Assembly: GCA_046583195.1 (NCBI GenBank)
Contig: JAYGCV010000128.1
Span: 10,113-74,112, forward strand
Source of the DNA: Myxococcota bacterium
GTDB taxonomy: Bacteria > Myxococcota_A > UBA9160 > UBA4427
Direction of reading: 5' to 3'
Length of the DNA: 64,000 nucleotides
The translations under genes and the position numbers were made by a program. How positions within the stretch are numbered: the first letter of the stretch is position 1; every line of letters starts with the position of its first letter. The notes beneath the pieces were generated by a model. That model ran no database searches and was not told the DNA's origin. It saw only the letters and a program-made list of their open reading frames with translations. Positions 3,599-61,592 of this stretch are shown here, piece after piece.

Positions 3599-5149
3599 AT
3601 GTCGATCACCGAGCAGCTGAAGAAGCTCGAACAATTGAATGCCCAGGTGGCCCTCGCCGGAGGCGAGGCGCGGATCGAGCGTCAGCATAAGCTCGGAAAG
3701 TTGACGGCGCGCGAGCGCTTCGAGCTGCTCTTCGATCCCGGGACCTTCGTCGAGATCGACAAGTTCGTGGTGCATCGCTGCACCGACTTTGGGATCCAGG
3801 ACCAGAAGTACCTCGGAGACGGCGTGGTGACCGGCTATGGCCGGGTGCACGGGCGCAAGGTCTTCGCCTTCGCGCAGGATTTCACGATCTTTGGCGGCAG
3901 TCTCTCCGAGGCCTTCGCCCGCAAGATCTGCAAGATCATGGATCTCGCGATCAAGGTGGGGGCTCCTGTCATTGGCCTGAACGACGGCGCGGGAGCGCGG
4001 ATCCACGAGGGTGTGAACTCGCTCGGCGGTTACGGCGACGTCTTCCTGCGCAACGTGATGTCTTCGGGGGTGATCCCGCAGATTTCGACGATCATGGGCC
4101 CGTGTGCCGGCGGCTCGGTCTATTCCCCGATCCTCACCGACTTCCTGATCATGGTGCAGGAGACCAGCAACATGTTCATCACGGGCCCGGACGTGGTGAA
4201 GACGGTGACCCACGAGGAGGTCAGCGCCGAGGATCTCGGCGGGGCGATGGTCCACGCGACCCGGAGTGGCATCGCACACTTCGCGGCGAAGGACGAGCAG
4301 GAGTGCATCGAGACGATCAAGCACCTGCTCTCCTACCTGCCCCAGAACAACATGGAGACGCCGGCTTTCGTCGCCACCCAGGATCCGGCGGATCGGATGG
4401 ACCCGGAGCTGCGATCGGTGATTCCGGAAAACCCGAACGAGCCCTACGACATCAAGGACATCATCCTGAAGACGGTGGACGACGGACAGTTTCTCGAGAT
4501 CCACGAGCGCTACGGCCGCAACGTGGTGGTGGGCTTTGCGCGATACGGCGGCCACGCTGTTGGCATCGTGGCGAACCAGCCGGCGGTGATGGCGGGCTCG
4601 CTCGATATCGAAGGCTCGCGCAAGGCGGCGCGCTTCGTTCGCTTCTGCGACGCCTTCAACATCCCGCTCGTCACCTTCGTCGATACCCCGGGCTTCCTGC
4701 CGGGGACCGATTCGGAGCACGCGGGCATCATCATCCACGGGGCGAAGCTGCTCTACGCCTTCTGCGAGGCGACGGTGCCGCGCATCACGATCGTCACGCG
4801 CAAAGCCTACGGCGGCGCCTATGTCGTGATGAACTCAAAGCACATCCGCGCGGACGTCAACCTCGCCTTCCCGAGTGCGCAGATCGCGGTGATGGGCCCG
4901 GACGGCGCGGCCAACATCGTCTTCCGCCGGGAGATCAAGGCCGCCGAAGACCCGGCCGCGAAACGCCTCGAGCTTCAGCAGGAGTACACCGACGCCTTCG
5001 CCAACCCCTACAAGGCCGCCGAGCTCGGTTTCATCGACGACGTCATCGTCCCCGAGCAGACGCGACCGCGGGTGATCGACGCCCTCGACCTGCTGGCCGG
5101 GAAGAAGGACGAAAACCCGCCGAAGAAGCACGGCAACATCCCGCTCTAG
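3599..5149 (+). CDS. pccB: acyl-CoA carboxylase carboxyltransferase subunit (propionyl-CoA carboxylase beta / methylmalonyl-CoA carboxyltransferase type)
   Basis: 516 aa with a two-lobed carboxyltransferase pattern (GRVHGRKVFAFAQDFTIFGGSLSE, IVANQPAVMAGSLDIEGSRKAARFVRFCDAFNIPLVTFVDTPGFLPG). Confidence 0.9.
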   Translation: MSITEQLKKLEQLNAQVALAGGEARIERQHKLGKLTARERFELLFDPGTFVEIDKFVVHRCTDFGIQDQKYLGDGVVTGYGRVHGRKVFAFAQDFTIFGGSLSEAFARKICKIMDLAIKVGAPVIGLNDGAGARIHEGVNSLGGYGDVFLRNVMSSGVIPQISTIMGPCAGGSVYSPILTDFLIMVQETSNMFITGPDVVKTVTHEEVSAEDLGGAMVHATRSGIAHFAAKDEQECIETIKHLLSYLPQNNMETPAFVATQDPADRMDPELRSVIPENPNEPYDIKDIILKTVDDGQFLEIHERYGRNVVVGFARYGGHAVGIVANQPAVMAGSLDIEGSRKAARFVRFCDAFNIPLVTFVDTPGFLPGTDSEHAGIIIHGAKLLYAFCEATVPRITIVTRKAYGGAYVVMNSKHIRADVNLAFPSAQIAVMGPDGAANIVFRREIKAAEDPAAKRLELQQEYTDAFANPYKAAELGFIDDVIVPEQTRPRVIDALDLLAGKKDENPPKKHGNIPL

Positions 5150-5227
5150 GCCCGTCCCGGTTTCTGATGACGTCCCCGTTTCTGACGTTTCTGATTATTT
5201 CGGACGCGCCGCGTACTTTCGGGTGAC
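5150..5227. repeat. intergenic repeat element (CGTCCC(C)GTTTCTGA tandem copies plus a TTTCGGACGCGCCGCGTAC motif), member of the CGGGGACG-core family
   Basis: It fills the whole convergent gap between the pccB stop and the ubiquitin-like gene stop. It contains cgtcccggtttctga, cgtccccgtttctga and tttctgatta direct copies. The motif GGACGCGCCGCGTAC resembles GGACGCGCGCGGGTAC at 53213. Confidence 0.5.
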
Positions 5228-5569
5228 TCAGATCATCCCGCCCACCAGCAGTGCAAGGCCAGCGCCCCCAAGGAGAGGGAGCGCGGACCCGAACACGAGA
5301 TAGATCGTCGACTCGGTTCCGATGCCATAGTCCGAAAGAGTGCGGCTGTCTTCCATTTCCCTGCCCGCGAATACGAGGAACTGCTCGGCGGGCGGAATGC
5401 CTTCCTTGTCCTCAATCTTGTGCTTGACGTTCTCGATGGTGTCGCCCGATTCGACTTCCAGGAGGAGGGTCTTTCCGGCGCTCGTCTTCACGAAGATCTG
5501 CATGGCGAAGCTAACGTTGGCCAGAAGCACCAAGGCGGTGACGACCAGAGCCAGCTGGGTTCGGTTCAT
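5228..5569 (-). CDS. exported ubiquitin-homolog protein (signal peptide + ubiquitin fold + hydrophobic C-terminal tail)
   Basis: 113-aa ORF. Residues 1-22 ([22 protein letters not shown]) look like a Sec signal peptide. Residues 23-94 ([72 protein letters not shown]) align without gaps to eukaryotic ubiquitin. The tail is [19 protein letters not shown]. Confidence 0.9.
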
Positions 5570-5590
5570 CGGAGTCTCACGCGATTTGCA

Positions 5591-5605
5591 ATCTGAACGG
5601 TTCAG
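5591..5605. promoter_or_regulatory. perfect 15-nt palindrome TCTGAACGGTTCAGA upstream of the ubiquitin-like gene (possible operator)
   Basis: 7-bp arms around a central G. It lies 22-36 nt upstream of the ATG at 5569, in the comparatively AT-rich 102-nt spacer after tatC. Confidence 0.3.
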
Positions 5606-5671
5606 ACGGTGACGCCCCGATAAAATTTGCAGGCGGGGGAGGCCGAACCGTTTCTCTCGCCGTCCCGCCGG

Positions 5672-6391
5672 CTATTTTTTGCCGAAGAGCCAGGCGACAC
5701 CGACGCCGACCAGGTAGAGCCCGATCATCGGGATCGCCAGCAGGATCTGCGAGATCCAGTCGGGCGGAGTGAGAATGGCGGCCGCCACGAAGACCGCCAG
5801 CACCGCGTAGGGGGTCCCCTTGAACAGCTGCTTCGCGGTCACGATCCCTGAGAGCGACAAGAAGAAGACGAACACCGGGAGCTCGAAGGCCAGGCCAAAC
5901 GCGAGAAAGAGCCGCGTCGTCAGCGCGAAGACCTCGCGCATCGTCCAGGCCGAGTGCACGAACTCGCTGTCGAAGCCCGTGAAGAACCCGAACATGATCG
6001 GGAAGACCACGCTGTAGCCGAAGAAGGCGCCCAGCAGGAAGAGGCCGGTCGACGTCACCACGAAGGGGACGACGAAGCGTTTTTCGTTTGCGTACAGCCC
6101 CGGCGAGATGAAGGCCCACACCTGCCAGAAGAAGACCGGAAGGGCCAGCACGAAGCCCGCCAGCAGGGCGGACTTCAGGTAGGTGAAGAAGATCTCGGTG
6201 GGGGCGATGGCCTGGAGCGTCGTGCCCTCGGGTGCCAGGGCGGCAACGGCCGGCGCCAGTAGGATCGCGAAGATCTGTTCGGCGAAGCTCCAGGCCAGGA
6301 TGGCGCCGACGAACCACGCCAGCAGGACCCGCAACAGCCGCGACCGAAGTTCGACGAGATGCTCGGTAACGGGGAGAGCGGTTTCATCCAC
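5672..6391 (-). CDS. tatC: twin-arginine translocase subunit TatC
   Basis: Polytopic membrane protein with TatC motifs (HLVELRSRLL, FFWQVWAFISPGLY, ILTPPD). The likely GTG start at 6391 gives VDETALPVTEHLVELR, which matches the spacing of the E. coli TatC N-terminus, and overlaps the tatA stop. The ORF track extends to 6460. Confidence 0.9.
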   Translation of the reverse strand: MDETALPVTEHLVELRSRLLRVLLAWFVGAILAWSFAEQIFAILLAPAVAALAPEGTTLQAIAPTEIFFTYLKSALLAGFVLALPVFFWQVWAFISPGLYANEKRFVVPFVVTSTGLFLLGAFFGYSVVFPIMFGFFTGFDSEFVHSAWTMREVFALTTRLFLAFGLAFELPVFVFFLSLSGIVTAKQLFKGTPYAVLAVFVAAAILTPPDWISQILLAIPMIGLYLVGVGVAWLFGKK

Positions 6392-6731
6392 CGCCGGGCT
6401 CGTGTCCTTCGTCCGGCAAAGGCTTGCGAGGCTCGTCGTTCGGGGTGGCCTCGGTGCCATCCTTCAAAGCACTGGTTTCGGGCGTGCTGCTGGGGTCGGT
6501 CTGCTCGAGATCAGGAGGCGCAATGCGGTAAGAATCCGATGACGCCGCGCGCTTCAAATCTTCGCTGATGTCGGCCTCCTGGATGCTGCGACGCAGGTCG
6601 TTCGAATGGCGACGAAACTCGGCCATGCTGCGGCCCAGCGATTGCGCGAGACCCGGAAGGCGTTTCGGTCCGACGACGATCAGCGCGACCGCGAGGATGA
6701 GGACCAGTTCCGTGGCACCGATTCCGAACAC
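6384..6731 (-). CDS. tatA: twin-arginine translocase TatA/TatB-family subunit
   Basis: The N-terminus MFGIGATELVLILAVALIVVGPKRLPGLAQSLGRSMAEFRR is the canonical TatA/E/B TM-plus-amphipathic-helix signature. The C-terminal tail is acidic and Pro-rich. Confidence 0.9.
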   Translation of the reverse strand: MFGIGATELVLILAVALIVVGPKRLPGLAQSLGRSMAEFRRHSNDLRRSIQEADISEDLKRAASSDSYRIAPPDLEQTDPSSTPETSALKDGTEATPNDEPRKPLPDEGHEPGGG

Positions 6732-6779
6732 ATCGGTACTCTAGCAGGCGGCGCAAGGACCCCGAACCGGGGGCGGCAG

Positions 6780-8654
6780 TCAGGAGCGTGGCGGAGCCGG
6801 CAGATCGATCACCAGCAGGCTCTCGCCGCCGCTGCCGGCGTTCAGGGTGAAACTCCCTCCGAGCGCGTCGACCACGCTGCGAGCGGCTACGAATTCGAAC
6901 ACCTCTTCGGCTTCGGCCGACGTCCGCGGTGCGCCGCCGCCGATAGCATCGGCCCCGACGAGCTCGCCCAGAAATGGAGCGCACTCAAAGCGCAGCAGGA
7001 TCCGCGCGCGTGCCGCGCGCTCATTGGTTTCTGCCAGGTGGTGCGAGGCCAGGAAGAGCGTGCCCCCCCGCGGCAGCCACTCGACCGCGCGTTCCAGGAC
7101 GCCGGCCAGTGCCGCTTCGAGCAGGCTGGCATCGGCGTGGGCGCGGCTTTCGCCTTCTTCGATTTCGGTTTCGAATAGACTGGCGCGCTCGTCGAGCACC
7201 TCGCTGCAGGCGTCGGCAAGGTGCCGCAACAGCGCCGACAGATCGATCTCGACGATGTCCGGGTTTTGCAGCGCGCGGAGGTTACGCAGTGCTGTAACCA
7301 CGTCCCGGATCCGCTCGGCATCCGCTCCAACTGCGTCCGGTTCCGAAAGCAGGGCGCCTGCTTCCGCGCCCTCCGGCCCCCCGGCGAAGGATTCGATCGA
7401 GACGAGGGGTTGGCGGATCTCGCGGTTCGCGGCCTCCACCAGCTTCGCCCAGGCAGATTCACCGGGCGATGCAAGCGCAGGCTCGGGCCTCGGCGGCTCT
7501 GAGGGAGGGGAGGACGGCTCGTCCCCCTCCGCCGCCAGGGGCAGGCCGGCGCTGGCTACCGGGTCACTTTCGAAGCGGAGCCCCCGCGGACCCAGGGTCT
7601 CGCCCTCGCAACCCGCGAGGCTGCGCAGCAGGACGCTTTCGGCCTCTGCGAGGTTTCCCGGCCAGGGATGGGTCCGCAGCACTTCGAGGGTGTCGTCGCG
7701 CAGCTGCGGCGCGGGGCGCCCGCGTTCTGTGCCCCAGGCCGCCAGCGTCGAGGCGATCAGATGGTCGAGTGTCCGGGGCTGGTCGCGCAGCGCGGGCAGC
7801 TCGACGACGCGTGAGGAGAGCAGTCGCTCGAGGCGCGCTTCGAAGCGTGTGCTCCGATGGCCCTCTGCGTCGGCGCCCGCGATCCAGCGCACGCAGAAGA
7901 GCCCAGAACCGGCGGGCGGCTCGAAGGCGATCCAATCGGCCAGCGTGTGCTGCAAGGTGGCCGGAAGCCGATCGACGTCGGCCAGGAAGACCGTTCCGCA
8001 GGCGGCGGATCGATCCCCGCCCAGAGCGTCTTCGAGTTCACGCCGCGAGCGCACTGCGCTCCCGGGAATCGAAACGAAGCGCGTATGCGGGTCGGGGCCG
8101 TGCTCGTGGAGGTAGCGTGCGAGCAGCGCACGTCCGCTCCCGGCTTCGCCCCGGATCAAGAGCGAGAGACCGCGCGCGCGCGGGTCGGTCGCCCCGAGCA
8201 GGGTTGCCGAAGGCGCTTCGCCAAACCAGCGGGCGAAGCGTTGGCTCACGCTCTCGCGTCGTCGCCGCGCCGAGAGCGGCAACACCGACTCGCGTTCGAT
8301 CGAGTCGAGCAGCAGCTGCGACAGCGCGCGCGGGTCCGGCGGCCAGGGGAGGATGTCGGCACGCAGGCTGTCGAAGAGTCGCCGTGCGTCCGCGTGGTCC
8401 TTTTCTTCGCACACCAGGATCCAGCGACGCGCGCCGAAACGCGGTGCCAGCCGGTGGGCGAACTCGAGTTCGAGTTCGAAATCGTCTTCCAAGCCGAGAA
8501 TGATCGCGCGCGGTTCGGGCACCGCCTCCGAATGGAAGACGGGGTCCCCGGGTCCGCCGGTGGCGATCGCGATCCTCTGGTTCACCAGACGCACCAGCGC
8601 CGCCCGGCGTTCCGGGTGGCGATGCACGATCCAGATGGCGGGGTCGGTTTGCAT
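6780..8654 (-). CDS. degenerate REC-like / NtrC-type AAA+ / histidine-kinase-like fusion protein
   Basis: Probable start is MQTDPAIWIV (ATG at 8654). The AAA+ core has GEAGSGRALLARYLH, VFLADVDRL and HPWPGNLAEAES. The C-terminus has a DHp-like ANREIRQPL and a CA-like GGSFTLNAGSGGESLLVIDLP. No C-terminal HTH is present. Confidence 0.75.
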   Translation of the reverse strand: MQTDPAIWIVHRHPERRAALVRLVNQRIAIATGGPGDPVFHSEAVPEPRAIILGLEDDFELELEFAHRLAPRFGARRWILVCEEKDHADARRLFDSLRADILPWPPDPRALSQLLLDSIERESVLPLSARRRRESVSQRFARWFGEAPSATLLGATDPRARGLSLLIRGEAGSGRALLARYLHEHGPDPHTRFVSIPGSAVRSRRELEDALGGDRSAACGTVFLADVDRLPATLQHTLADWIAFEPPAGSGLFCVRWIAGADAEGHRSTRFEARLERLLSSRVVELPALRDQPRTLDHLIASTLAAWGTERGRPAPQLRDDTLEVLRTHPWPGNLAEAESVLLRSLAGCEGETLGPRGLRFESDPVASAGLPLAAEGDEPSSPPSEPPRPEPALASPGESAWAKLVEAANREIRQPLVSIESFAGGPEGAEAGALLSEPDAVGADAERIRDVVTALRNLRALQNPDIVEIDLSALLRHLADACSEVLDERASLFETEIEEGESRAHADASLLEAALAGVLERAVEWLPRGGTLFLASHHLAETNERAARARILLRFECAPFLGELVGADAIGGGAPRTSAEAEEVFEFVAARSVVDALGGSFTLNAGSGGESLLVIDLPAPPRS

Positions 8655-9015
8655 TCGTGTGGTGGCTCTCTCTGCCGCCTCGGCGGCGGGGGTGCACGGG
8701 TCCGCAAAAACAAGGGGCAAGTCGCGTGCCAATCCGGCCCGGCGGCAGTCCCCAGGCAGTTTACCCGTGGATCGACTGCGGCGAAACGCAGCGCATGCGC
8801 CGACGCGCGCAGGCCACGCGCAAAAGCCCGGCCTACTCGTGCGGCATGCCCTGGAATGAGAGAAAGTTTTTACCCTCGCGGTCGCACGAACTTCCACCGG
8901 GCACGCCCTCGATTGCCCCGCGCGGCGGCTTCTGCGAGCCTCGGGCTGCGCCGGGTTTCGGGGGCCTGCATTCGTAGACCCACGGCCCATGAAAGCTTCG
9001 GGAGGGACGGGAAAA

Positions 9016-9972
9016 ATGCGATCCCACGTTCGCCAAATGGCCGGAAGCCTGTGTCTCGCGGTCGGTCTGCTAGCGCCGCTGTCGGCACAGGCCGAAGTCG
9101 ACCTGCTTGGAACCTGGTACGTCCTGATCCACTACAAGGACAGCGCCACCAACAACCCCGACGTCGACCGCTGGCTCGACCGCGTCTGGTCGATCGAGAA
9201 GAAGGGCAGCCGGCTGCAGTGGACCGAGTACCCGATCGTGGTCTTCCAGAACCAGACCGGCCGCTTCGAGCGCTACCGCGGGGTGCGCAGTCGGGTGCTC
9301 TCGGCCTGGGAGCCAAACGCCACCCAGCGAGCGCAGATCAAGAGCGGCCTCGAAATCAACTCGCGCGGAAGCAAGTCGAAGAGCCTGCGCGGCTCGTGGA
9401 AGAAGGGCTACAAGAGCACCACGCGGATGCGCACCCAGTCGGCGAACGTGATCGGATACGTCGAGAACTGGAGCATTGAAGACGCCGAAACCAACCCGAT
9501 CTTCACCTTCGATGACATGATGGGGAGCGGCCGCACCGAGAACCTCGAGGGCCAGACGCGATACGAGACCCAAAAAATCGAGGAAAACGGCGACCTTCTC
9601 AGAGGCCAATACAACCGCGATGACAATCGCGCCGGCACCTTCCAGCTGATGCGAGCGGGCTCGGTGGCGCGCGTGGCCGGGAAGAGCGATCGCGTGAAGA
9701 AGGAGCGACAACGCCTCTTCCTCGAGGGTCTCGAGCGCCTGGAGGAAGAGCAGGAGGGGGGACCCAGCTCGAGTTCGAAGGCGCTGAAGGAGTACATCGA
9801 CGCGCTCGACACGTCCGAGCGGCACTGGCTCGAGGATCGACTGGCGGGTCGGCCGATGCAGGAATGGGGTGTCGTCATCCAGAAGCACTTCCGTTCGCTG
9901 CCCAAGAGCGAGCAGAAGAGACTCGCCGGGCATCTCGAGGCGCTCGAGCGCGCCTTCTCGTCGGAGAACTAG
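9016..9972 (+). CDS. secreted hypothetical protein
   Basis: GGAGGGA lies 8 nt upstream of the ATG at 9016. The signal peptide is MRSHVRQMAGSLCLAVGLLAPLSAQA|EV. The composition looks coding, with a Lys/Glu-rich C-terminal helical part. I recognise no family. Confidence 0.65.
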   Translation: MRSHVRQMAGSLCLAVGLLAPLSAQAEVDLLGTWYVLIHYKDSATNNPDVDRWLDRVWSIEKKGSRLQWTEYPIVVFQNQTGRFERYRGVRSRVLSAWEPNATQRAQIKSGLEINSRGSKSKSLRGSWKKGYKSTTRMRTQSANVIGYVENWSIEDAETNPIFTFDDMMGSGRTENLEGQTRYETQKIEENGDLLRGQYNRDDNRAGTFQLMRAGSVARVAGKSDRVKKERQRLFLEGLERLEEEQEGGPSSSSKALKEYIDALDTSERHWLEDRLAGRPMQEWGVVIQKHFRSLPKSEQKRLAGHLEALERAFSSEN

Positions 9973-11870: not shown

Positions 11871-12022
11871 CCTCGCGGCGGCGCCTCTTGGCCCCGCGGG
11901 GGAAATCCGCAGTCGCACCGAAGCGGAATGGGTGCGAACTGCGACCCGAGGTGCGGTACGCTTCGGCTTGCCGAAACCCGGTTTCGCAGCCTGCCACCCT
12001 CCCTCCCCTAGAGGACGACTCG

Positions 12023-13432
12023 TTGGCAAAACCCCGTCACAGTAGGCGCAGCCCCATCTCGCTGCGCGGGGTCGGCCTTGGGCTGACGATCGGTCTGGCG
12101 CTGGGCTGGTTTCTCTTTGCCCCGTCGATGTCGGTCGCTCCCGGAGACGAAGCGCTTCTGGCAGCCATGCCGGTAGCCCTCGGAGATTCCGACGCCGGGG
12201 TCGATGGCGGCGCGTCCAAAGCCGGCATGGGCGGCCCGCTGGGCCCTTCGTTGCCGCCGGGCTGGGCGCACGATCTCGCCGCCTCGATCATGGCGAAAAG
12301 TGGCGAGTCGAAGAGCGCCGTTCTCTCGGGTCGACTCGAGCGAGGCGAATCGCTGACGCGGGCCCTCGGCCGCTACGGGGTTCCGCAGGCGACGGTCACG
12401 CTGATCGCCAACGAGCTTCGTTCGCTCTTCGATTTCCGGGACTCGCGGCCCGGCGACTACTACCGGGTCGAGCTCGACCAAGACGGGCGCGTCCAGGATT
12501 TCGTCTACGTGAATGCCAATGAGGGGCCGCTGCACCTCTATTGGGACGGCGCGCGCTACCACGCGGAAGTCGAAAAGCGCGAGGTAGAGATCCGCACCGA
12601 GCGCATTGCCGGGGTCGTCGAAAACACGCTCTACGAGGCGATCCTCGCCCTCGGCGAGGATCCCCAACTCGCCAACGCCTTCTCCGAGGTCTTCACCTGG
12701 GAAATCGATTTCCGGCGCGGCGTCCGCCCGGGCGACAGCTTCAGCGCGGTTTACGAACGCGCCTACGAAAAGACTTCCGACGGGGGCGAACGCTACGTCG
12801 GTCTGGGCCGCATCCTGGCCGCGACCTACGTGGGTACCGCCGGCGACTACACCGCCTACCACTACAAGGCGAAGAACAAGCCGAGCGGCTATTACCGCGC
12901 CGACGGCACTTCGCTCGAAGGCCGCTTTCTCTTCCGCCCGGTCGAAACCGGGCGTATCAGCTCGGGCTATAGCAACGCGCGACGCCACCCGATCCTCAAG
13001 GTCACCCGACCCCACCACGGGATCGACTGGGCCGCCCCGCGCGGTTCGCCGGTCTGGGCGGTGGCGAGCGGCGAAGTCATCTTCCGCGGCCGCAACGGGA
13101 GCTTCGGCAACCTGGTCAAGATCCGCCACGAGAACGGCTACGTCTCCTATTACGGCCACCTCGAGGGCTTCCCGGGCAGTCTGCGCGTGGGCGATCACGT
13201 GCGCCAGAAGCAGGTGATCGGCTTCGTCGGGTCGACCGGACTCTCCACCGGGCCGCACGTAGATTTCCGCATGAAGAAGGGCGGGCGTTTCGTCAATCCG
13301 CGGAAAGTCAAAAGCTCGGCGGGGCCGTCGGTCGCGAAGGAAGATTGGAGCGACTTCCAACTGAGGCGCGACGAATTGACCGCCCGGTTGCTCGGCTCGC
13401 GACTTGCTGCGAACGAAAAACCCTCGACTTAG
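12023..13432 (+). CDS. M23-family metallopeptidase (MepM/YebA-like, N-terminal membrane anchor)
   Basis: C-terminal LytM motifs (HHGIDWAAPRGSPVWA, GNLVKIRHENGYVSYYGHL, GSTGLSTGPHVDF). TM segment GVGLGLTIGLALGWFLF. The proposed TTG start at 12023 is preceded by GAGGA; the start is uncertain. Confidence 0.8.
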   Translation: MAKPRHSRRSPISLRGVGLGLTIGLALGWFLFAPSMSVAPGDEALLAAMPVALGDSDAGVDGGASKAGMGGPLGPSLPPGWAHDLAASIMAKSGESKSAVLSGRLERGESLTRALGRYGVPQATVTLIANELRSLFDFRDSRPGDYYRVELDQDGRVQDFVYVNANEGPLHLYWDGARYHAEVEKREVEIRTERIAGVVENTLYEAILALGEDPQLANAFSEVFTWEIDFRRGVRPGDSFSAVYERAYEKTSDGGERYVGLGRILAATYVGTAGDYTAYHYKAKNKPSGYYRADGTSLEGRFLFRPVETGRISSGYSNARRHPILKVTRPHHGIDWAAPRGSPVWAVASGEVIFRGRNGSFGNLVKIRHENGYVSYYGHLEGFPGSLRVGDHVRQKQVIGFVGSTGLSTGPHVDFRMKKGGRFVNPRKVKSSAGPSVAKEDWSDFQLRRDELTARLLGSRLAANEKPST

Positions 13433-23012: not shown

Positions 23013-24149
23013 TCAGGTCTCCAGCACGACAAGATCGTCTCGGTGGATTACCTCGTCGCCATTCCACGAGCCTAGCACTCGCTTGGCGTCGCGAGCTTTC
23101 AGGCCCTTGACCTTCTCGAGATCGCCGGAGGAATAGGCGACCAGACCGCGCGCAAACTCGCGACCGCGACTGTCGAGACAGGACACGGAGTCGCCCACGC
23201 GAAAGCGACCGTGAACGGCCTTGATGCCGGCCGCGAGCAGGCTCTTGCCCCGGGCCGTAAGGGCGTTGCGGGCACCTTCGTCGAGTACCAGTTCTCCGCG
23301 CGATCGGGTCGCGAAGGCGATCCAGTGCTTGCGGCTGGTCATACGCTCGGTCGGGTGGAAGAGTGTTCCAATCGCTTCCCCCGAAAGCACGCGCTGCAAT
23401 ACGAAGCGGCTGCGTCCGGAGCAGATTACCGTGGTGGCGCCCGAACGCGAAGCCATTTCGGCGGCCTCGAGTTTTGTGACCATGCCGCCGCTGCCGAGCT
23501 TTGACCCGGCACTCCCCGCGGCTCTCCGTAAGGCGGGCGTGATGGCTTTGACCTCATCGAGGATCGGGGGAGTGGCCTCGCCTGCGACGGGCTTTCGCTC
23601 GTAGACACCGCCGACATCGGTGAGGATCACAAGGGCGTCGGCGTCGACGAGGTTGACCAGGATCGCGGACAGACGGTCGTTGTCTCCGAAGAGAATCTCC
23701 TCGGTGGCGACGGTGTCGTTTTCGTTCACCACCGGGACCACGCCGAAGCGAAGCAACTCGAGGAGCGTATGCCGTGCGTTCAGGAAGCGCTCCCGGTCGG
23801 CCAGGCCCGAACGCGTGACGAGAACCTGGCCGACGAGGCGCTTGCGTCGCGAGAAGCGTCGCCGGTAGAGTTCCGCCAGCCCGATCTGGCCGACCGCGGC
23901 CGCGGCTTGTTTTTCTCGCGTCGAGCGTTCGCGCGTCCCCCAGCCGAGTTCGAAGCTGCCCACGGCGATGGCTCCGGAAGACACGAGCACCACCTCGATC
24001 CCCGAGTCCATGAGGTCGGCGATCTGGCGCACCAGTTCGCTCACCTTTCGGGTCCGCAGTCGCCCGTCGCGCGTGAGTGTGCTGCTGCCGACCTTTACGA
24101 CGATCCGCCGAGCCCGGGTGAGCCGCTTGCGTGCAGGCGAGGCGCTCAT
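23013..24149 (-). CDS. proB: glutamate 5-kinase (with PUA domain)
   Basis: 378 aa with RIVVKVGSSTLT, VLVSSGAIA, NENDTVA, and a C-terminal PUA-like region. Confidence 0.93.
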   Translation of the reverse strand: MSASPARKRLTRARRIVVKVGSSTLTRDGRLRTRKVSELVRQIADLMDSGIEVVLVSSGAIAVGSFELGWGTRERSTREKQAAAAVGQIGLAELYRRRFSRRKRLVGQVLVTRSGLADRERFLNARHTLLELLRFGVVPVVNENDTVATEEILFGDNDRLSAILVNLVDADALVILTDVGGVYERKPVAGEATPPILDEVKAITPALRRAAGSAGSKLGSGGMVTKLEAAEMASRSGATTVICSGRSRFVLQRVLSGEAIGTLFHPTERMTSRKHWIAFATRSRGELVLDEGARNALTARGKSLLAAGIKAVHGRFRVGDSVSCLDSRGREFARGLVAYSSGDLEKVKGLKARDAKRVLGSWNGDEVIHRDDLVVLET

Positions 24150-25207
24150 GCCGAGGCCTCGTCCTGCTTTGCCGTGTCGATCTCGGCAGCGGCGTCGATG
24201 GTTCGCAAGGTCTCCTGCATCAGCGCGTCGACCCCTTCTCCGGTCGCCCCCGAAATCGCAAAGACGCGACAGCCCTCGGCCTCGAACCTTTCGCGAAGCG
24301 CTGCGAGACGTTGCCGATCCGAAACCAGGTCGACCTTGTTGAGCACCACCACCTCGCTCCGCCCGAGCAGTTCGGGATCAAAGAGACCGAGTTCATTGCG
24401 CAGCGTACGATAGTCGTCGAAGGGGTCTCGATCTTCGAGCCAGGCCCCGCCCACATCGAGAAGATGAAGCAATACCCGCGTGCGTTCGACGTGGCGCAGG
24501 AAGCGATCGCCGAGGCCGACCCCCTCGCTGGCGCCGGCGATGAGGCCGGGCAGGTCCGCGACGATGAAGCGCCGCTCATCGACTTCGACCACGCCGAGCG
24601 CGGGGACCAGGGTCGTGAAGGGATAGTTTGCGACAGCGGGCTTTGCCGCCGAGATGCGACCGAGGAGTGTCGACTTGCCGGCATTTGGAAGCCCGAGCAG
24701 GCCGACGTCCGCGAGCAGCTTCAGTCGCAGTTCGAGCGTTCGGGTCTCTCCGGCGAGGCCGGGCTTCGCGAAGTCGGGAGCCTGCCTTGTCGACGTGGCG
24801 AAGTGGGGATTGCCCCAGCCCCCGCGTCCCCCGCGCGCGGCGTGGAAACGATCCCCATCGCGCCGCAGGTCGGCGACCGGGGTGTCGGCTTCGGTGTCGG
24901 GGGACTCGTAGAAAACGGTCCCTACGGGAACCCGCACTTCGATATCCCGACCTGCTGCGCCGTGCCGGCTGCGCACTTCGCCAGGGCGTCCTGCCTCGGC
25001 TTCGATGTGGCGCCGCCTCGCGAACTCGAGCAGGGTGTTGCGATTGCGGTCGGCGATGAAGATCACATTGCCGCCGCGTCCGCCGTCGCCCCCGTCCGGT
25101 CCCCCACGCGGTTCGAACTTTCCGCGATAGAAGTGGACGCAGCCGTCTCCGCCCCGCCCCGAGGCGATCGTCACGCAGACTTCATCGACGAATCCCGACT
25201 TCTTCAT
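24146..25207 (-). CDS. obg: GTPase Obg/CgtA
   Basis: N-terminal Gly-rich Obg fold (GGDGGRGGNV) and a G domain (GLPNAGKST, DLPGLI, NKVD). Confidence 0.95.
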   Translation of the reverse strand: MKKSGFVDEVCVTIASGRGGDGCVHFYRGKFEPRGGPDGGDGGRGGNVIFIADRNRNTLLEFARRRHIEAEAGRPGEVRSRHGAAGRDIEVRVPVGTVFYESPDTEADTPVADLRRDGDRFHAARGGRGGWGNPHFATSTRQAPDFAKPGLAGETRTLELRLKLLADVGLLGLPNAGKSTLLGRISAAKPAVANYPFTTLVPALGVVEVDERRFIVADLPGLIAGASEGVGLGDRFLRHVERTRVLLHLLDVGGAWLEDRDPFDDYRTLRNELGLFDPELLGRSEVVVLNKVDLVSDRQRLAALRERFEAEGCRVFAISGATGEGVDALMQETLRTIDAAAEIDTAKQDEASA

Positions 25208-25297
25208 GGGAGGGTCCCCAGAGAGAAGGCATGGCCGAGCCCGCGCTCGTACCAGGGGAAATCGGATCGGGTAATAGAGCGGGGCTCCGGTCGCTGC

Positions 25298-25549
25298 CTA
25301 CGGCTGATCGACCGACGCCTGCACCCGACCGCGAGAGCGGCCGTACCGCACCGTGCCGTTGCAGAGCGCAAAGAGGGTGTAATCCCTGCCGAGGCCGACG
25401 TTCTGCCCGGGGTGGATACGGGTGCCAAGCTGCCGCACGAGGATCGCACCCGCTTGCACGGTCTGACCGCCGAATACCTTCATGCCGCGGCGCTGACCGT
25501 TGCTATCTCGGCCGTTCCGCGAACTTCCCTGTCCCTTTTTATGCGCCAT
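25298..25549 (-). CDS. rpmA: 50S ribosomal protein L27
   Basis: [29 protein letters not shown]. The ATG at 25549 overlaps the rplU stop by 1 nt. Confidence 0.95.
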
Positions 25550-25860
25550 CAGCAACCCTCGATGGCGTCGACCAGGACTTCGGTGTAGTCCTGGCGATGA
25601 CCGTATTTGCGGCGGTAGCCGGTGCGGCGCTTCATCTTGAAGATCCGCAACTTCGGGCCACGACCCTGCTCTACGATGGTACCGCGAACGACCGCGCCCT
25701 CTACGAGCGGTCTGCCGATCTGGATATTCTCGCCGCCGACGAGCAGGACTTCCGGGAACTCCACCGTGTCGCCCACCGCGCCTTCCAGCTTCTCGACCCG
25801 GACGGCCTCACCGGGCTCGACCCGAACCTGTTTTCCACCGGTCTTGACCACCGCGTACAT
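25549..25860 (-). CDS. rplU: 50S ribosomal protein L21
   Basis: [18 protein letters not shown]...[13 protein letters not shown]. Confidence 0.95.
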
Positions 25861-28249: not shown

Positions 28250-29674
28250 ATGGATCCGAGACAAGCCGTCAAGCCGGACCCCCGACGCGGGCTGCCCTCC
28301 GTGGATCGTCTGATCCGCGAAGCGAGCGGCGCGGCTTCGGAGCTGCCCAACTGGGCCGTGCGCGCCGCTGCGCGCGAGGCGGTCGAAGCGCTCCGGGGGG
28401 AGTTGGAAGCCCAAGGAGCGGCGGCGGACACCCGCGGGGCGAATGCCGCTGATGGCGACGTCCTGGGGCGCGCCGTGGCGGACTGCCTGGCACGGGCCGA
28501 GCGCCTGGCGAAGCCAAGCCCCCGCCGCGTGCTCAACGCTACGGGCGTCGTACTCCACACCAACCTGGGGCGGGCTCCGCTTTCTCGGGCGGCGGCCGAC
28601 GCAGTGCAGGCTGCCGCGCTCTCGTATTCGGACCTCGAGATGGACCTCGAGCAGGGGGGCCGAGGCGATCGCCTCGCCGGTGTCGCCCAGAAGCTAAGAC
28701 TGCTCTCGGGGGCCGAATCGGCCCACGTCTCCAACAACAACGCGGCCGCGCTCCTGTTGGTCCTCGACACCCTCGCCCGCGACCGCGAGGTGATCGTCTC
28801 GCGTGGAGAGTTGGTCGAAATCGGGGGCTCGTTCCGGGTTCCCGAGATCATGCAGCGCGCCGGGGTGCGCCTGGTCGAGGTGGGGACCACGAACCGTACC
28901 CACGCCGAGGACTACGAGAACGCAATCGGTCCCCAGACGGCCCTGCTGCTGAAGGTGCATCGCAGCAATTTCGAACAGAAGGGGTTCGTCGCCGAAGTGG
29001 GCCTTCCGGCACTGGCTGCGATCGGCGCGCGCGCTGGGCTGCCGGTGGTCGATGATCTCGGCAGCGGGACCCTCGTCGACCTGTCGGACCGGGGAATTCC
29101 CATCGAGGCTTTCGCCCCCTCGCGGCTCACGGCCGGCGCCGACGTGGTGTGTTTTTCCGGGGATAAACTTCTGGGCGGTCCCCAGGCCGGGATCCTGCTG
29201 GGGAAGCAGGAGATCGTGGAGCGTTGCCGACGCAACCCCCTGGCGCGAGCCCTGCGTCCAGACAAGCTCGGGATCGCAGCACTCGATGCCACCCTCGAGT
29301 GCCTGCTCGATGGGCGCGGCGAAGAGGAGATCCCGGTACTGCGGCGCTTGCTCGAGCCGGTGGCTTCGCTCGAAGCGCGCGCCCGCAAGCTCGCCGGACG
29401 GCTCGCGAAGAATCACCCCGCTCCGCTGCGCTTCGAGGTTGCGAAGGAGAGCGCCCCCGTGGGTGGCGGATCGCTGCCGGGCTTCGCACTCGAGACCTGG
29501 GTGGTCGAAGTGTCTGGCGCCGGCTCCGCCGAACGCCTCGCGGCCCGGTTGCGCCGGGCGGAAACGCCGGTCCTCGCGCGGCTTCGAGACGGTCTGCTGA
29601 AGATCGACCTGCGCACTCTCGAAGACGACGAGTGCGCCGAAGTCGAGCGCATGCTCGACGCGGCGCTTCGCTGA
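28250..29674 (+). CDS. selA: L-seryl-tRNA(Sec) selenium transferase
   Basis: 474 aa. N-terminal LPSVDRLIRE signature, the PLP-Lys region VCFSGDKLLGGPQAG, and the overall SelA layout. Confidence 0.9.
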   Translation: MDPRQAVKPDPRRGLPSVDRLIREASGAASELPNWAVRAAAREAVEALRGELEAQGAAADTRGANAADGDVLGRAVADCLARAERLAKPSPRRVLNATGVVLHTNLGRAPLSRAAADAVQAAALSYSDLEMDLEQGGRGDRLAGVAQKLRLLSGAESAHVSNNNAAALLLVLDTLARDREVIVSRGELVEIGGSFRVPEIMQRAGVRLVEVGTTNRTHAEDYENAIGPQTALLLKVHRSNFEQKGFVAEVGLPALAAIGARAGLPVVDDLGSGTLVDLSDRGIPIEAFAPSRLTAGADVVCFSGDKLLGGPQAGILLGKQEIVERCRRNPLARALRPDKLGIAALDATLECLLDGRGEEEIPVLRRLLEPVASLEARARKLAGRLAKNHPAPLRFEVAKESAPVGGGSLPGFALETWVVEVSGAGSAERLAARLRRAETPVLARLRDGLLKIDLRTLEDDECAEVERMLDAALR

Positions 29675-57958: not shown

Positions 57959-59241
57959 TGGGCGAGCGGAAACACTCGAGCGGGGGGCTCCCCGATTCGC
58001 TCTACCAGGGCACCCTCGACTGCGTTCACTGTGGCCTGTGTCTCTCTGCTTGCCCGACCTACCGGGTGACCGGCCAGGAGATCGCGTCGCCGCGCGGGCG
58101 CATCTACCTGATGCGCGGCGTGGCGGAGGGGCGCATCGAACTCGGGTCGGGTTTGGCGCAGGAGAGCCGCCTGTGTCTCGGCTGTCGAGCCTGCGAGACG
58201 GCCTGCCCGGCGGGTGTCGGCTACGGCGCGTTGCTCGAGGCCACGCGCAGCGTGGTGGCGCGCGAGCGCATTGACTGGGGAATCTTCCAGCGAATCGAGC
58301 GGATGGTGTTGCGCCAGTGGGTGCCACGGCCACGGAGGCTGCATTGGGCGCTCTCGCTATTGCGAGCGTTCCAGGGCCTGAAACTCGATCGACTCGCTGC
58401 TCGCTGGCTTCCGCGAAACCTAAGCGGCGCCCTGGAACTCGCACCGAGGGTTCCCCCCGCGTCTTCTCGTCGGCGCCTTCCCGCGCAGACTCCGGCGCGC
58501 GGCGAACGGCGCGGGTGCGTCGCCTTCCTCGAAGGCTGCGTGATGCCCGAGCTCTTTGGCGACGTCAACAGGGCCAGTGTCGAGCTGCTCTCGCGCCAGG
58601 GTTTCGAGGTGTTGGTCCCCGAGGCGCAGGGTTGCTGCGGAGCACTGCAAGCCCACGCCGGAGATCTCGAGACCGCGCACACACTGGCCTCGAAGAACGC
58701 GGCGGCCTTCGACGCGCTCGACGTGGATGCGATCGTGGTAAATTCTGCCGGCTGTGGTGCGGCGCTTCGCGAATGCGAGAGATGGATCGGAGCGGCGGGC
58801 GAGCGCACGGCCTCTCGCATTCGGGATATCAGCGAGTTCCTCGACGAAGTGGGCCTGCGCGGTCCCCTCGGTCGGGTTTCGCTGCGCCTCGCCTACGACG
58901 ATCCGTGCCACCTGGTCCACGCACAGGGCGTGGCCGAGGCCCCTCGGCGGTTGCTGAAGGCCATCCCCGGAATCGATCTGGTCGAACACGCCGAGGCGTC
59001 GGCGTGCTGCGGTGCGGCCGGCACCTACAACCTCGCCCAACCCGAAATGGCAAGAGCCGTTCTCGACCGCAAACTCGATCATCTCCTTGCAGCCGCACCG
59101 GAGTGTGTCGCTACCGGAAACCCGGGCTGCCTGATGCAGATCGCCTCTGGTCTGGCGCGCCGTGGCTCTGCGATTCGAGTGCTCCACCCGGTGGAGATCC
59201 TGCTCGAGGCCTGTCGGGGAGCTTCCGAGACTCAGCGGTAG
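57958..59241 (+). CDS. glcF: glycolate oxidase iron-sulfur subunit GlcF
   Basis: Two 4Fe-4S ferredoxin motifs (CVHCGLCLSACP, CLGCRACETACP) plus two CCG domains (DPCH..., NPGC). Confidence 0.9.
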   Translation: MGERKHSSGGLPDSLYQGTLDCVHCGLCLSACPTYRVTGQEIASPRGRIYLMRGVAEGRIELGSGLAQESRLCLGCRACETACPAGVGYGALLEATRSVVARERIDWGIFQRIERMVLRQWVPRPRRLHWALSLLRAFQGLKLDRLAARWLPRNLSGALELAPRVPPASSRRRLPAQTPARGERRGCVAFLEGCVMPELFGDVNRASVELLSRQGFEVLVPEAQGCCGALQAHAGDLETAHTLASKNAAAFDALDVDAIVVNSAGCGAALRECERWIGAAGERTASRIRDISEFLDEVGLRGPLGRVSLRLAYDDPCHLVHAQGVAEAPRRLLKAIPGIDLVEHAEASACCGAAGTYNLAQPEMARAVLDRKLDHLLAAAPECVATGNPGCLMQIASGLARRGSAIRVLHPVEILLEACRGASETQR

Positions 59242-61592
59242 AGGAAAGCGTCGGGCGTCGGTTTCGGCGTGCGCCAGCGCGGGAAGGCGCCCAGCGAGAG
59301 GTCGCCCAGTGAGCCCTGGAAGACCAGATCGAAGGGCAGGATCGATTCCCGAGAGCGCACCATTCCGTACTTTTCGCGCAGGCTCTCGTAGACGTAGGTC
59401 GATTGCGCCGCGGGTCGGTGGTCGATCGTTTCGGTGAGGCCGAGGCGAGCGCGCTCGAAGTAGAGATCGCGGCGCGCGTCGGCCTCGACGGCGGCGTCTT
59501 GGTCGATGCGCGCGGTTTCGAAGGTGCTCTCTTCCAGGATGGCGATCGTGCGCGCCAGACGCTCTTGCGAGATCGGCCGCTTGATCCGGTGGGGCTCATC
59601 GTCTTCGCTGGCGTTCGCGTCGACGAAGTCGAACTCGATGATGCGCCCGCCGAGAAAGGTCACGCCGCGTGGATGCAGTTCGCCGTTGGCCAGTTCGCCG
59701 TCGACGTACTCCGCCCGCAGCCCGAGCCCGTAGGGCCCTGCCACCGCGGGGTTTTCATACAGAAACCCTCGTGTCATGCGGATGCTCTGGGGGAAGCCCT
59801 CCTCGACTTCGGTTCTTGCCATGGTTCCCGCAGCGGCACCGGCTTCGGAGTCGGGATAGTCGCGTGCCAGATTCCGCAGCAGCGTGGAGCGCAGGTCACG
59901 CCGTCGGATCTTTCCCGCTGCCGTGAGCGTCTGGCCGCCGGTCTTTTCGACCAACTCGAGGCGCTTCGCCGCCGGGAAGCCCGGCTGGAAGTCGGCGAGA
60001 CGCAGCGCACGGTGAAAGTGCCCGCGACCTTCTTCGTATTCGTAGAGCCACGCGATCAGTTCTCGCGAATGCGCTCCCTCGGGGTTGCGGTCGAGATAGC
60101 GGTAGGCAGAGATCGCCATCCCTCTCTCGAAGTCGGGCTTCACGCCGCTGGTCTGCATCAGGTGGCGCAGCGGCGCGGTGACCGCCGCCTGGGCCAGGCG
60201 CGGAATCGCCATGGCGTAGCCTGCGGCTTGCGGCAGCGCCTTGTAGCGCGGCATGCGGATGTCACCGAAGACGTACCAGACGGCTTCGCGGCGCTGTTTC
60301 GTTGTCCGCTCGGCCAGGAACGTTCCGTAGGGGTTTTGATGGGGATCGCTCACCAGCGCGGCGGCGTGTCGCGCCATGTTCGATTTTGTGGGAGAGAGAC
60401 GCGCGATCGCGCCGAGATGTCGCCAACTCGCGCGCTCGCGCCCGGCTTCAAAGTGGTCGAGGGCAGCGATGAAGGCGGCCTCATCGTGCAATTCGCCCGA
60501 AGCGTCGGCGGCGCGCAATTCGCGCGCGATCGCGTCGAGATCCGAACCGGGCAGCAGCAGCGATTCCGAGACGCGTCGCACGACCACGGGGCGGCGCATC
60601 GCCAGCTCCGACAACTCGGCCTCGAAGCCCGGACCGGCCGCAAGTGTGCGCGGCCTTTCGGGCGGGTGTGACAGCTCCGTGGGCCGCTCCGTGTTCGCCT
60701 GCAGGCTGCGGTGGCGCAGGCGGCGCTGTCGCGCGATCTGTGAACTGGCTTGCGCGCCGATCGCGACCACGTTGGAGGCACCCTGAACCTCTCGTTGCGC
60801 GTGTTTCGCGTAGACTTCGGCCAGCCGCGGCTGGCCCGCTTCGAGGGCGGCATCCGCGGTTCCGGCGAGTGATCGCGCTCGCGTCTCGTGCAAGTCGCGT
60901 TCGGCACTCACGATCTGTTCGCGAACCTTCGGAGCCTCCGGTGCATCGGGGTGGGCATCGAGAAAGTGTCGCCGCAGCACCAGTGCCTGGCGTTCGGGGA
61001 GGCTGAGAGGGTCGACCTCGAGCATTCGCACCGCCCACTGCAGGACGCTCACTGCGATCTTGTAGGGGGCCAGCGCCAGTCCGCTGAGCACGGAAGTTCC
61101 GAGGGGTTCGGCAATGGCGTTGAAGGTGTGGGCGAAGAGCGTGTGACGGTGATCGAAAATGTGCCGGTCCGCGCGCTGTAGCGGATCGGAGTCGACGGCG
61201 GCCTCCAGGCGCTTTTCGAGCAGGGGGTCTGCGTTGCCCTCGGCAAGGAGCTTCTTCGAGGCTTCGCGGTAGGCCGTCGGGTCGTCGAGGCTCGCGTTTG
61301 CGAGATCGCGGCCCAGGGGTGCGAGGCGCGGGTCGGTCATTTCGAGGACGTAGAGGCTGCGCGCCACCTCTTGCTGGGAAGCGCCGAGGCTCGCCTCCAG
61401 CAGTTCAGCCGCTGCGCGATCCCGTCGCAACGGGAGCGGCGAGCGCGCCCTTCGCATCGGCTCGAGCGTGGTGGCTGCGGTGGGCACAGTCCGTGGTGGC
61501 GTGCTCTGGCAGCCGACCGTCGCCAGCAGGGCGAGCCCCGCGGTCAGCGCGATCCAAAGGCGGTGTCGGCGGTTATTGCGTGAAGCGGTCAC
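59232..61592 (-). CDS. large lipoprotein of unknown function
   Basis: The proposed GTG start at 61592 gives (M)TASRNNRRHRLWIALTAGLALLATVGC (positive n-region plus lipobox). About 786 aa, mostly helical composition, no family recognised. The ORF track extends to 61733. Confidence 0.65.
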   Translation of the reverse strand: MTASRNNRRHRLWIALTAGLALLATVGCQSTPPRTVPTAATTLEPMRRARSPLPLRRDRAAAELLEASLGASQQEVARSLYVLEMTDPRLAPLGRDLANASLDDPTAYREASKKLLAEGNADPLLEKRLEAAVDSDPLQRADRHIFDHRHTLFAHTFNAIAEPLGTSVLSGLALAPYKIAVSVLQWAVRMLEVDPLSLPERQALVLRRHFLDAHPDAPEAPKVREQIVSAERDLHETRARSLAGTADAALEAGQPRLAEVYAKHAQREVQGASNVVAIGAQASSQIARQRRLRHRSLQANTERPTELSHPPERPRTLAAGPGFEAELSELAMRRPVVVRRVSESLLLPGSDLDAIARELRAADASGELHDEAAFIAALDHFEAGRERASWRHLGAIARLSPTKSNMARHAAALVSDPHQNPYGTFLAERTTKQRREAVWYVFGDIRMPRYKALPQAAGYAMAIPRLAQAAVTAPLRHLMQTSGVKPDFERGMAISAYRYLDRNPEGAHSRELIAWLYEYEEGRGHFHRALRLADFQPGFPAAKRLELVEKTGGQTLTAAGKIRRRDLRSTLLRNLARDYPDSEAGAAAGTMARTEVEEGFPQSIRMTRGFLYENPAVAGPYGLGLRAEYVDGELANGELHPRGVTFLGGRIIEFDFVDANASEDDEPHRIKRPISQERLARTIAILEESTFETARIDQDAAVEADARRDLYFERARLGLTETIDHRPAAQSTYVYESLREKYGMVRSRESILPFDLVFQGSLGDLSLGAFPRWRTPKPTPDAFLYR

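Follow-up and report, generated by a model that had tools for sequence, protein, structure and literature searches.

Introduction

BfUbb of Bacteroides fragilis and BoUbb of Bacteroides ovatus are encoded by horizontally acquired, eukaryotic-type genes in which a signal peptidase I (SPI) signal directly precedes a ubiquitin fold that is approximately 60-68% identical to human ubiquitin, that lacks the C-terminal Gly-Gly and that is not conjugatable (PMC3352274, PMC5705921, PMC11467351). BfUbb is released and then imported by ButCD to inactivate a periplasmic peptidyl-prolyl isomerase (PPIase) (PMC3352274, PMC5705921, PMC11467351). The gene described here, located at 5228..5569 on the minus strand of a 64,000-nucleotide (nt) stretch of contig JAYGCV010000128.1 from a member of the Myxococcota (assembly GCA_046583195.1; this whole stretch is hereafter called the window), appears to resemble the Bacteroides genes in each of the first four respects. 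The two differ in that BfUbb ends soon after the fold and needs a C-terminal disulfide, whereas the window protein has no Cys, comes from a marine member of the Myxococcota and carries, in its full-length allele, a C-terminal tag built from a motif, a transmembrane segment and basic residues. In the literature, we found no ubiquitin fused to a sorting tag, and BfUbb and BoUbb were the only studied members of the family that came to light.

The layout of this tag is common to the LPXTG, PEP-CTERM, GlyGly-CTERM, PGF-CTERM and MYXO-CTERM sorting signals (PMC3237569, PMC11980579). With the GlyGly-CTERM/rhombosortase, PEP-CTERM/exosortase and MYXO-CTERM/myxosortase systems (PMC3237569, PMC6219818, PMC11980579) the likeness is one of general architecture, and a similar pathway would be expected, in which the protein is exported by Sec, kept in the inner membrane by its C-terminal helix, cleaved and then moved to the surface; the window tail differs from all three in that it contains neither a PEP motif nor an invariant Cys and has no match to the GlyGly-CTERM model. 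IPTL-CTERM (TIGR04174/PF18203) likewise forms the very end of Sec-exported proteins, is laid out in three parts and has Pro-x-Leu at the aligned position, whereas the window tail falls under its threshold (no match), reads LPLLGGAG in place of IPTLSEWG and lacks the basic cluster in the window allele. IPTL-CTERM is presumably attributable to exosortase XrtH, judging from NCBIfam naming, and overlapping matches to NF033207 ("midcut-by-XrtH") are the sole computed support for this link.

The evidence moderately favors the view that a eukaryotic-type ubiquitin gene was acquired horizontally and refitted as an exported cell-envelope protein, with a three-part C-terminal tag that is truncated in the window allele. 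What is new here is a secreted bacterial ubiquitin homolog with a sorting or anchor tag; secreted bacterial ubiquitins as such were known, and the large family to which they belong is hardly described.

A ubiquitin core with a predicted export signal

The ubiquitin open reading frame (ORF) runs from ATG to TGA and encodes 113 amino acids (aa), exactly matching the translation quoted in the initial annotation. A form of 124 aa is encoded by other strains (see below), and neither product contains Cys. The gene and the sequence directly behind it comprise the following features, all on the minus strand.

5504..5569 (-), Sec-type signal peptide, codons 1-22 (sequence, hydrophobic core, AlphaFold2 helix 3-16, family junction)
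5288..5503 (-), ubiquitin beta-grasp core, codons 23-94, equivalent to ubiquitin residues 1-72 (PF00240, gapless alignment, AlphaFold2, Foldseek)
5231..5287 (-), codons 95-113, A-L-P-L-L-G-G motif and hydrophobic helix of the C-terminal tag (alignment to the tags of relatives, AlphaFold2)
5228..5230 (-), polymorphic codon 114, TGA in the window (contig comparison)
5195..5227 (-), ten intact in-frame codons, VTRKYAARPK, and TAA, which form the tag's basic cluster (part of the product in the TGG allele; 3' of the stop here)

The signal peptide has a single Arg (MNRTQ), no Cys and a 12-residue hydrophobic core with a best 10-aa Kyte-Doolittle mean of 3.1. Ser at -3 and Ala at -1 precede Met23 (SFA/MQIF), which predicts an SPI site after A22. 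The n-region has no twin-arginine motif of the kind that marks Tat substrates, and the signal peptide has no lipobox Cys, such that it is not a lipoprotein signal. A scan in which each bacterial and archaeal species was represented by a single genome, and from which 82 ORFs in the best 80 loci were examined in detail, revealed the same junction elsewhere: a signal-peptide-like extension ends directly before MQIF in 65 of the 82 ORFs, with Ala at -1 in 55 and at -3 in 42. The two alignments of relatives described below contain this junction as well. The N-terminus is thus, as the initial annotation had argued, a predicted Sec/SPI signal rather than a Tat signal, positioned such that cleavage would leave ubiquitin Met1 at the new N-terminus.

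Residues 23-93 align without gaps with ubiquitin residues 1-71, and PF00240 matches residues 25-92 with 81.5 bits (E 3.8e-23; gathering score 25.4). Identity to human ubiquitin is 49/72 (68%) over residues 1-72. An AlphaFold2 model built from an alignment of 32 relatives gave a beta-grasp core with predicted local distance difference test values of about 86-91 and helices at residues 3-16 and, in the 124-aa form, 102-120. Ubiquitin chains were the top Foldseek matches in the PDB, with root mean square deviations of 0.5-1.2 A over 71-75 columns and target-normalized template modeling scores of 0.89-0.97.

The changes that the initial annotation had listed (L8S, I44V, K48R, K63T) and the lysines it considered kept (K6, K11, K27, K29, K33) are correct, and R42F, H68Y and R72G must be added to them. 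Positions 73-76 read S-A-L-P, and the first Gly-Gly, said to lie four residues late, does fall at ubiquitin positions 79-80. Chance cannot account for an arrangement of this kind. The motif LRLRGG occurs in no reading frame of the locus, in keeping with the view that no frame error conceals a normal RGG-stop. Neither LRLRGG with a free G76 nor the pair R42 and R72 recognized by the ubiquitin-activating enzyme (E1) is present, and a membrane tag follows the core instead. Because of R42F, R72G, the missing G75-G76, K48R and K63T, the core lacks the residues for E1 activation and chain building, and appears to be a fold or binding module rather than a conjugatable modifier. The changes at L8, R42, K48, K63, H68 and R72 likewise argue against a role that uses the eukaryotic ubiquitin machinery. 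The protein thus shares with eukaryotic ubiquitin the beta-grasp fold, the 68% identity and the five retained lysines, and differs from it in being apparently exported rather than cytosolic, in the replacement of LRLRGG by a membrane tag and in its genetic surroundings: the window genes include no gene for E1, a ubiquitin-conjugating enzyme (E2), a JAB protein, a deubiquitinase (DUB), a sortase or an exosortase.

The outline of an SPI signal peptide followed by a ubiquitin of this degree of identity without a Gly-Gly end is that of BfUbb and BoUbb (PMC3352274, PMC5705921, PMC11467351), which raises the alternative that the protein is a diffusible antibacterial toxin of the BfUbb kind, released to poison a periplasmic target in competitors; the truncated allele described below might favor such release. 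The activity of BfUbb and BoUbb needs a C-terminal disulfide (PMC11467351), and the absence of Cys from the window protein argues against their mechanism. Furthermore, BfUbb has no membrane tag, and its ButCD importer and PPIase target are specific to Bacteroides. The toxin explanation is therefore regarded as distinctly improbable.

A nonsense polymorphism at codon 114

The segment at 5228-5296, which comprises residues 92-113 and the stop codon, was noted in the initial annotation for a hydrophobic end without basic residues. This description fits the window allele and fails for a second allele, in which the tail continues as W + VTRKYAARPK. The best database match (P0001) is a 124-aa protein that is 100% identical to the window product and ends in ...GGMI-W-VTRKYAARPK. 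It is encoded on eight metagenome contigs, each with the order sigma54-type activator, tatA, tatC, ubiquitin, which have 96.6-99.7% DNA identity to the window. Codon 114 is TGG in all eight, the ORF otherwise differs only synonymously, and the ten codons and TAA that follow are the same as in the window. The missing basic cluster, which had been taken for the protein's own design, is the result of a TGG-to-TGA truncation of a conventional three-part tag and constitutes a frequent natural allele. For annotation this carries a caution, namely that an odd C-terminus may be a segregating nonsense allele and not a new kind of signal.

Both alleles are widespread. Precisely the 113-aa sequence is encoded by 15 contigs, which derive from at least 10 samples in ENA, JGI and Logan, and precisely the 124-aa sequence by 8 contigs; a TGR pattern scan of JGI metagenomes yielded one further TGA contig and one further TGG contig. 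NCBI records of metagenome-assembled genomes (MAGs) named "Myxococcota bacterium" exist for both forms, and the 90% cluster contains additional variants of each. In an alignment of 21 sequences, 12 have TGA (the window included, with one contig entered twice) and 9 have TGG. TGA occurs mainly on one single-nucleotide polymorphism (SNP) background and on at least two others, including that of the window, which indicates that it is old enough to have recombined or that it arose more than once. Because the downstream codons encode a basic cluster of the type seen after the helix in homologous bacterial tails, we infer that the TGG state is ancestral. The 33 nt after TGA are invariant in the 21 sequences, which is weak evidence, as less than one variant would be expected.

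Single-base differences at window positions 5327, 5646, 5667 and 5678 are private to the window and absent from 20 other contigs of the species, and the window may thus come from a somewhat divergent strain or assembly.

Next to no probability remains for an error in sequencing or assembly, or for a wrongly called frame that conceals an ordinary ubiquitin end. The single-base difference from the first eight contigs compared would fit such an error, and the recurrence of TGA in 10 further independent ENA, JGI and Logan contigs on differing SNP backgrounds refuted it. An alternative genetic code was also ruled out, as TGA is the main stop codon.

It is very improbable that TGA is decoded, either as selenocysteine or through leaky read-through by tRNA-Trp, such that the 124-aa protein would still be made wholly or in part. 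SelA (L-seryl-tRNA(Sec) selenium transferase; PF03841, E 8.6e-135) is encoded at 28250-29674 (+), and the organism therefore has selenocysteine machinery; the codons downstream of TGA are also intact. UGA read-through by tRNA-Trp is established in bacteria and would restore the ancestral residue exactly. Neither recoding nor selenocysteine is indicated, because TGA is an ordinary stop in this organism, terminating 18 of 26 Pfam-confirmed genes, and the RNA downstream is unstructured: for the 71 nt that surround and follow TGA, the computed fold does not improve on that of shuffled sequences (z = 0.19), and they contain no hairpin like a selenocysteine insertion sequence (SECIS). In addition, the same downstream sequence follows TGG in other strains.

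Relationship of the tail to known sorting tags

The C-terminus of the 124-aa form consists of a linker and motif (G-S-A-L-P-L-L-G-G), a hydrophobic helix of approximately 14-20 residues and W plus the basic cluster VTRKYAARPK; the three-part layout is complete only in this TGG allele, as the 113-aa allele of the window stops before the basic cluster. Two alignments placed the tail on the (I/V)P(T/A/V)L..G plus transmembrane tags of other bacterial ubiquitins that bear signal peptides, in line with the original proposal that an anchor or sorting-type tail replaces the conjugation tail. Three of these relatives exceed the TIGR04174 (IPTL-CTERM) cut-off of 20.5 bits (P0033, 25.1; P0040, 22.5; P0042, 31.6), and tags of intermediate character are found in P0022 (AVPLLGGAGF...), P0032 (AVPVLGPVG...) and P0065 (AVPALSPAGL...), the last of which scores 17.1 bits against that cut-off as an isolated tail. 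Against a profile built from 28 other tags, with the window's own protein left out, the tail scored 14.5 bits, aligned on PTLsewGlallallLl, and none of 2000 shuffled sequences reached this value (mean 0.8, sd 2.0, max 12.1).

The initial annotation had suggested a search of C-terminal sorting-domain models as a check, and no curated model matched the tail. NCBIfam scans of the 113-aa protein, the 124-aa protein and the isolated tails gave only generic 10-bit matches, far under the cut-offs. TIGR04174 had no match at E <= 10 in P0001 or in its isolated tail, and for PEP-CTERM (TIGR02595) neither the PEP motif nor a model match was present. MYXO-CTERM (TIGR03901), the typical tag of the phylum, was excluded because the protein has no Cys, a residue that is invariant in this tag (PMC11980579). 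The hallmark of a sorting system is that many proteins share one tag; a homology search with the 40-aa tail alone, for paralogous tags, gave no candidates. The alignments and the profile match suggest, weakly, that the tail is homologous to IPTL-type tags. Because this support is weak and no curated sorting model reports the tail, it is best described, from its sequence, as an unclassified IPTL-like three-part tag that belongs to no named class.

Another assignment is a GlyGly-CTERM-like tag that a rhombosortase would cut at the GG or GGAG motif. The 124-aa allele does fit the loose architectural criteria for GlyGly-CTERM (PMC3237569), and proteins with such tags exist in some Myxococcota (Anaeromyxobacter). 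TIGR03501, the GlyGly-CTERM model, is nevertheless silent on the tail at E <= 10, its usual signature is SGGS, the alignment of relatives puts the tail on the IPTL/VPxL type and no rhomboid-like protein is encoded in the window. This assignment is accordingly considered improbable.

A family of putatively exported ubiquitins

In the bacterial and archaeal genomes, the number of stretches that the family scan identified as coding for ubiquitin relatives was at least 568. Most of the 82 ORFs encode long secreted or surface proteins that start with ubiquitin, while 10 combine ubiquitin with a short tag of transmembrane and basic residues and an (I/V)P(T/A/V)L motif, like that of the window protein, and others terminate at LRLRGG. 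A type IX secretion system (T9SS) C-terminal domain (CTD), PF18962, is present in P0076 and P0112, a PEP-CTERM-like tag in P0047 and, as read from sequence, LPXTG-like ends in the Gram-positive Clostridia and Coriobacteriaceae MAGs L025, L030 and L081. Because the ubiquitin module is fused elsewhere to T9SS CTDs and PEP-CTERM-like tags, surface delivery appears to be a theme of the family. Identity to human ubiquitin among the family cores is 82-96% (median 90%, a figure that the search patterns bias upward), and the window protein, at 68%, is unusually divergent within the family.

Ubiquitin is an emblem of eukaryotic protein regulation, and the scan shows that hundreds of bacterial and archaeal species have a ubiquitin of the eukaryotic type; many of the relatives examined carry recognized surface-sorting tags. 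If these proteins are displayed on the surface, it is of considerable interest why the fold was recruited, whether for mimicry toward grazers or hosts, for antagonism of the BfUbb kind or as a robust folding module, and how it spread between phyla.

Giant predicted surface proteins in which ubiquitin is the first domain behind a signal peptide were observed in many phyla, for example in a Candidatus Lindowbacteria MAG (approximately 2000 aa, L075) and in a Methanothrix MAG (approximately 1500 aa, L032), and a MAG labeled Prochlorococcus (L086) contains a ubiquitin ORF whose long C-terminal extension is of no recognized type. Poly-ubiquitin contigs of 470-1100 bp (L071, L073, L088, L063, L056) in isolate assemblies of Marinobacter, Ectobacillus, Rugosimonospora and Flavobacterium look like eukaryotic contamination of these assemblies.

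Ubiquitin relatives also occur in viral contigs of IMG/VR, where they number at least 568. Among the 80 loci kept, many are contigs of giant-virus MAGs and most matches are confined to the core, for which reasons the viral scan says little about the source of the gene. In a few viral cases (L132, L101, L097), the match already begins within the query's signal peptide.

Proposed pathway and competing explanations

For the 124-aa form, the preprotein would be exported by Sec and cut by SPI after SFA22, such that the mature protein would start with Met1 of ubiquitin, and the ubiquitin fold would be made in the periplasm. The C-terminal helix would then retain the protein in the inner membrane with the basic cluster on the cytoplasmic side, until a sorting enzyme encoded elsewhere in the genome cuts at or near LPLLGG and hands the protein on for display at the cell surface. 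The likeliest candidate seems to be an exosortase-like enzyme, as the related proteins have homologous tags of the IPTL-CTERM type, with a rhombosortase-like enzyme as an alternative. Because the stop-transfer cluster is missing from the 113-aa form, this form would be expected to be poorly retained, and thus mis-sorted or released, although a small fraction of read-through may restore the full form from the TGA allele. It is a classic result that LPXTG proteins without the charged tail lose their anchoring, which points in the same direction as the behavior of TraA. TraA is the closest experimental analogy for the 113-aa form: once its MYXO-CTERM tag is removed, the Myxococcus surface no longer retains it and it is released (PMC11980579).

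The two common alleles of this one species amount to a natural experiment. As they differ only in the cytoplasmic basic cluster, the role of the cluster and of the tag is directly testable. A bolder and improbable proposal is that the high-frequency TGG/TGA dimorphism is a maintained switch, and not mere decay, between an anchored or sorted and a released surface ubiquitin, in which UGA read-through by tRNA-Trp would provide a low level of the anchored form, and that exported proteins starting with ubiquitin make up a large and virtually unstudied class of surface proteins in bacteria and archaea, with a ubiquitin of eukaryotic origin at the mature N-terminus in front of IPTL-CTERM, PEP-CTERM, T9SS or LPXTG-like tags or of giant adhesin-like bodies.

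Several observations weigh against the interpretation of the gene product as a sorted envelope protein. With respect to the tag, the 14.5 bits of the tail lie well under the 27-53 bits of the tags used to build the profile, and none of the curated models (IPTL-CTERM, PEP-CTERM, GlyGly-CTERM, MYXO-CTERM, LPXTG) reaches E = 0.1 on it. With respect to the enzyme, a hydropathy scan of the window genes identified a single polytopic membrane protein in the 64 kb, TatC, and found no sorting enzyme, and none adjoins the tagged ubiquitin genes of five other genomes (L011, L014, L029, L035, L062), around which the membrane genes are limited to SecDF, NhaA, Mrp and transporters. P0022 and P0032, the relatives with the most similar tails, lie on short contigs of 1.1-1.4 kb that give no context. 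Finally, the truncated allele outnumbers the full-length one and the gene of a third strain is interrupted midway by a nonsense codon, such that the gene may be dispensable.

The silence of the curated models and the lack of a sorting enzyme in the window or beside related genes would both be accounted for if the tail were a plain C-terminal anchor, which tethers ubiquitin to the periplasmic face of the inner membrane in the absence of a sorting enzyme, cleavage or surface display; a helix and a basic cluster suffice for a type I anchor. This explanation does not account for the Pro-containing motif at the position where relatives that pass TIGR04174 have the IPTL motif, nor is it favored by the joining of the ubiquitin module to recognized sorting tags in the T9SS and PEP-CTERM-like cases described above. 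A plain anchor is accordingly judged unlikely, while retaining appreciable weight.

The allele data bear on a further explanation, in which the gene is a dispensable, decaying acquisition and TGA is one of several loss-of-function variants that drift or are selected, for example to shed a surface target. The third allele, in L095 (4911-5288, JGI contig Ga0310122_10000645), has TGG at codon 114, a nonsense mutation at codon 56 (KIEDK*GIPP), and T4S and L6P in the signal peptide. Within the cluster, non-conservative singleton variants were found at invariant ubiquitin residues (G47D and D58N/Y59D in P0248, R54P in P0252), together with A12D in the signal peptide of P0244. These variants, the greater frequency of the truncating TGA (15 versus 8 contigs) and the absence of the gene from the syntenic site of a sister taxon (see below) are all in keeping with decay. 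On the other hand, the 124-aa protein is identical on its eight contigs and the 113-aa protein on its 15, despite synonymous and flanking differences, and the invariance of the 33 nt after TGA argues, weakly, in the same direction. The ratio of nonsynonymous to synonymous polymorphism (pN/pS) of the ubiquitin gene, 0.45, does not differ from that of its neighbors, with counts too tiny to interpret. Decay is considered an unlikely explanation that nonetheless carries substantial weight, and the reading of the gene product as an exported, three-part-tagged envelope protein remains the one moderately favored.

Genomic context

The composition of the gene is host-like: the window has 66% GC, and the GC content at third codon positions of the ubiquitin gene, 0.79, is like that of its neighbors. 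The other genes of the window are of a housekeeping nature and include malic enzyme, pccB, tatAC, proBA, nadD, RNase E/G, selA, rho and prfA, as well as hisD, hisB, hisA/F, dnaG, rpoD and glcDF. The nearest named PccB homologs, with 72-73% identity, are from MAGs of Myxococcota and "Deltaproteobacteria".

A sister taxon represented by a marine metagenome contig (L089), with a 91% identical PccB and about 79% DNA identity, has its genes arranged as IclR, acyl-CoA dehydrogenase, malic enzyme, pccB ... tatC, tatA, activator, and no ubiquitin gene. In the place of ubiquitin, its pccB-tatC gap contains a gene for an inosine-uridine nucleoside hydrolase (PF01156; L089:5062-6045), which leaves no trace in the window (tblastn E > 1). 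In a more distant relative, pccB is followed by pccA. Because the sister taxon lacks the ubiquitin gene at the syntenic site, the gene is a lineage-specific insertion or replacement, and its adjacency to tatAC is therefore incidental. The tatAC neighbors have no significance, since the sister taxon keeps pccB-tatC-tatA in the absence of ubiquitin.

The gene is flanked by two spacers.

5570..5671 (-), spacer of 102 nt that separates the stop of tatC from the ubiquitin start (promoter/terminator scan)
5150..5194 (no strand), intergenic spacer to pccB, which contains a direct duplication of 18 nt (CGTCCC[C/G]GTTTCTGA) and varies by indels between strains (contig comparison)

No sigma-70-like promoter or terminator was found in the 102-nt spacer, and the promoter and terminator scan, which covered 5100-6900, gave nothing useful. 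The spacer between ubiquitin and pccB is highly indel-polymorphic among strains (L001-L008, L095, L096, L177-L186), in which the 18-nt duplication is present or absent, and an insertion of approximately 130 nt occupies it in L095, L096/L178, L177 and L179.

Upstream of tatA, the ORF at 6780-8990 (-) resembles sigma-54 activators, with only weak AAA+ matches (PF14532, 31.6 bits). It comprises 736 aa in the window, and the calls for other strains (624 aa) and for the sister taxon (606 aa) are shorter; because these lengths differ, its start is uncertain. Four long ORFs have no Pfam match: 8989-9972 (+), 12008-13360 (-), 24131-25588 (+) and 59232-61733 (-). The ORF at 12008-13360 has odd GC values by codon position and may not be a real gene, while that at 8989-9972 has a signal-peptide-like N-terminus (…LCLAVGLLAPLSAQA) and is conserved in the sister contig.

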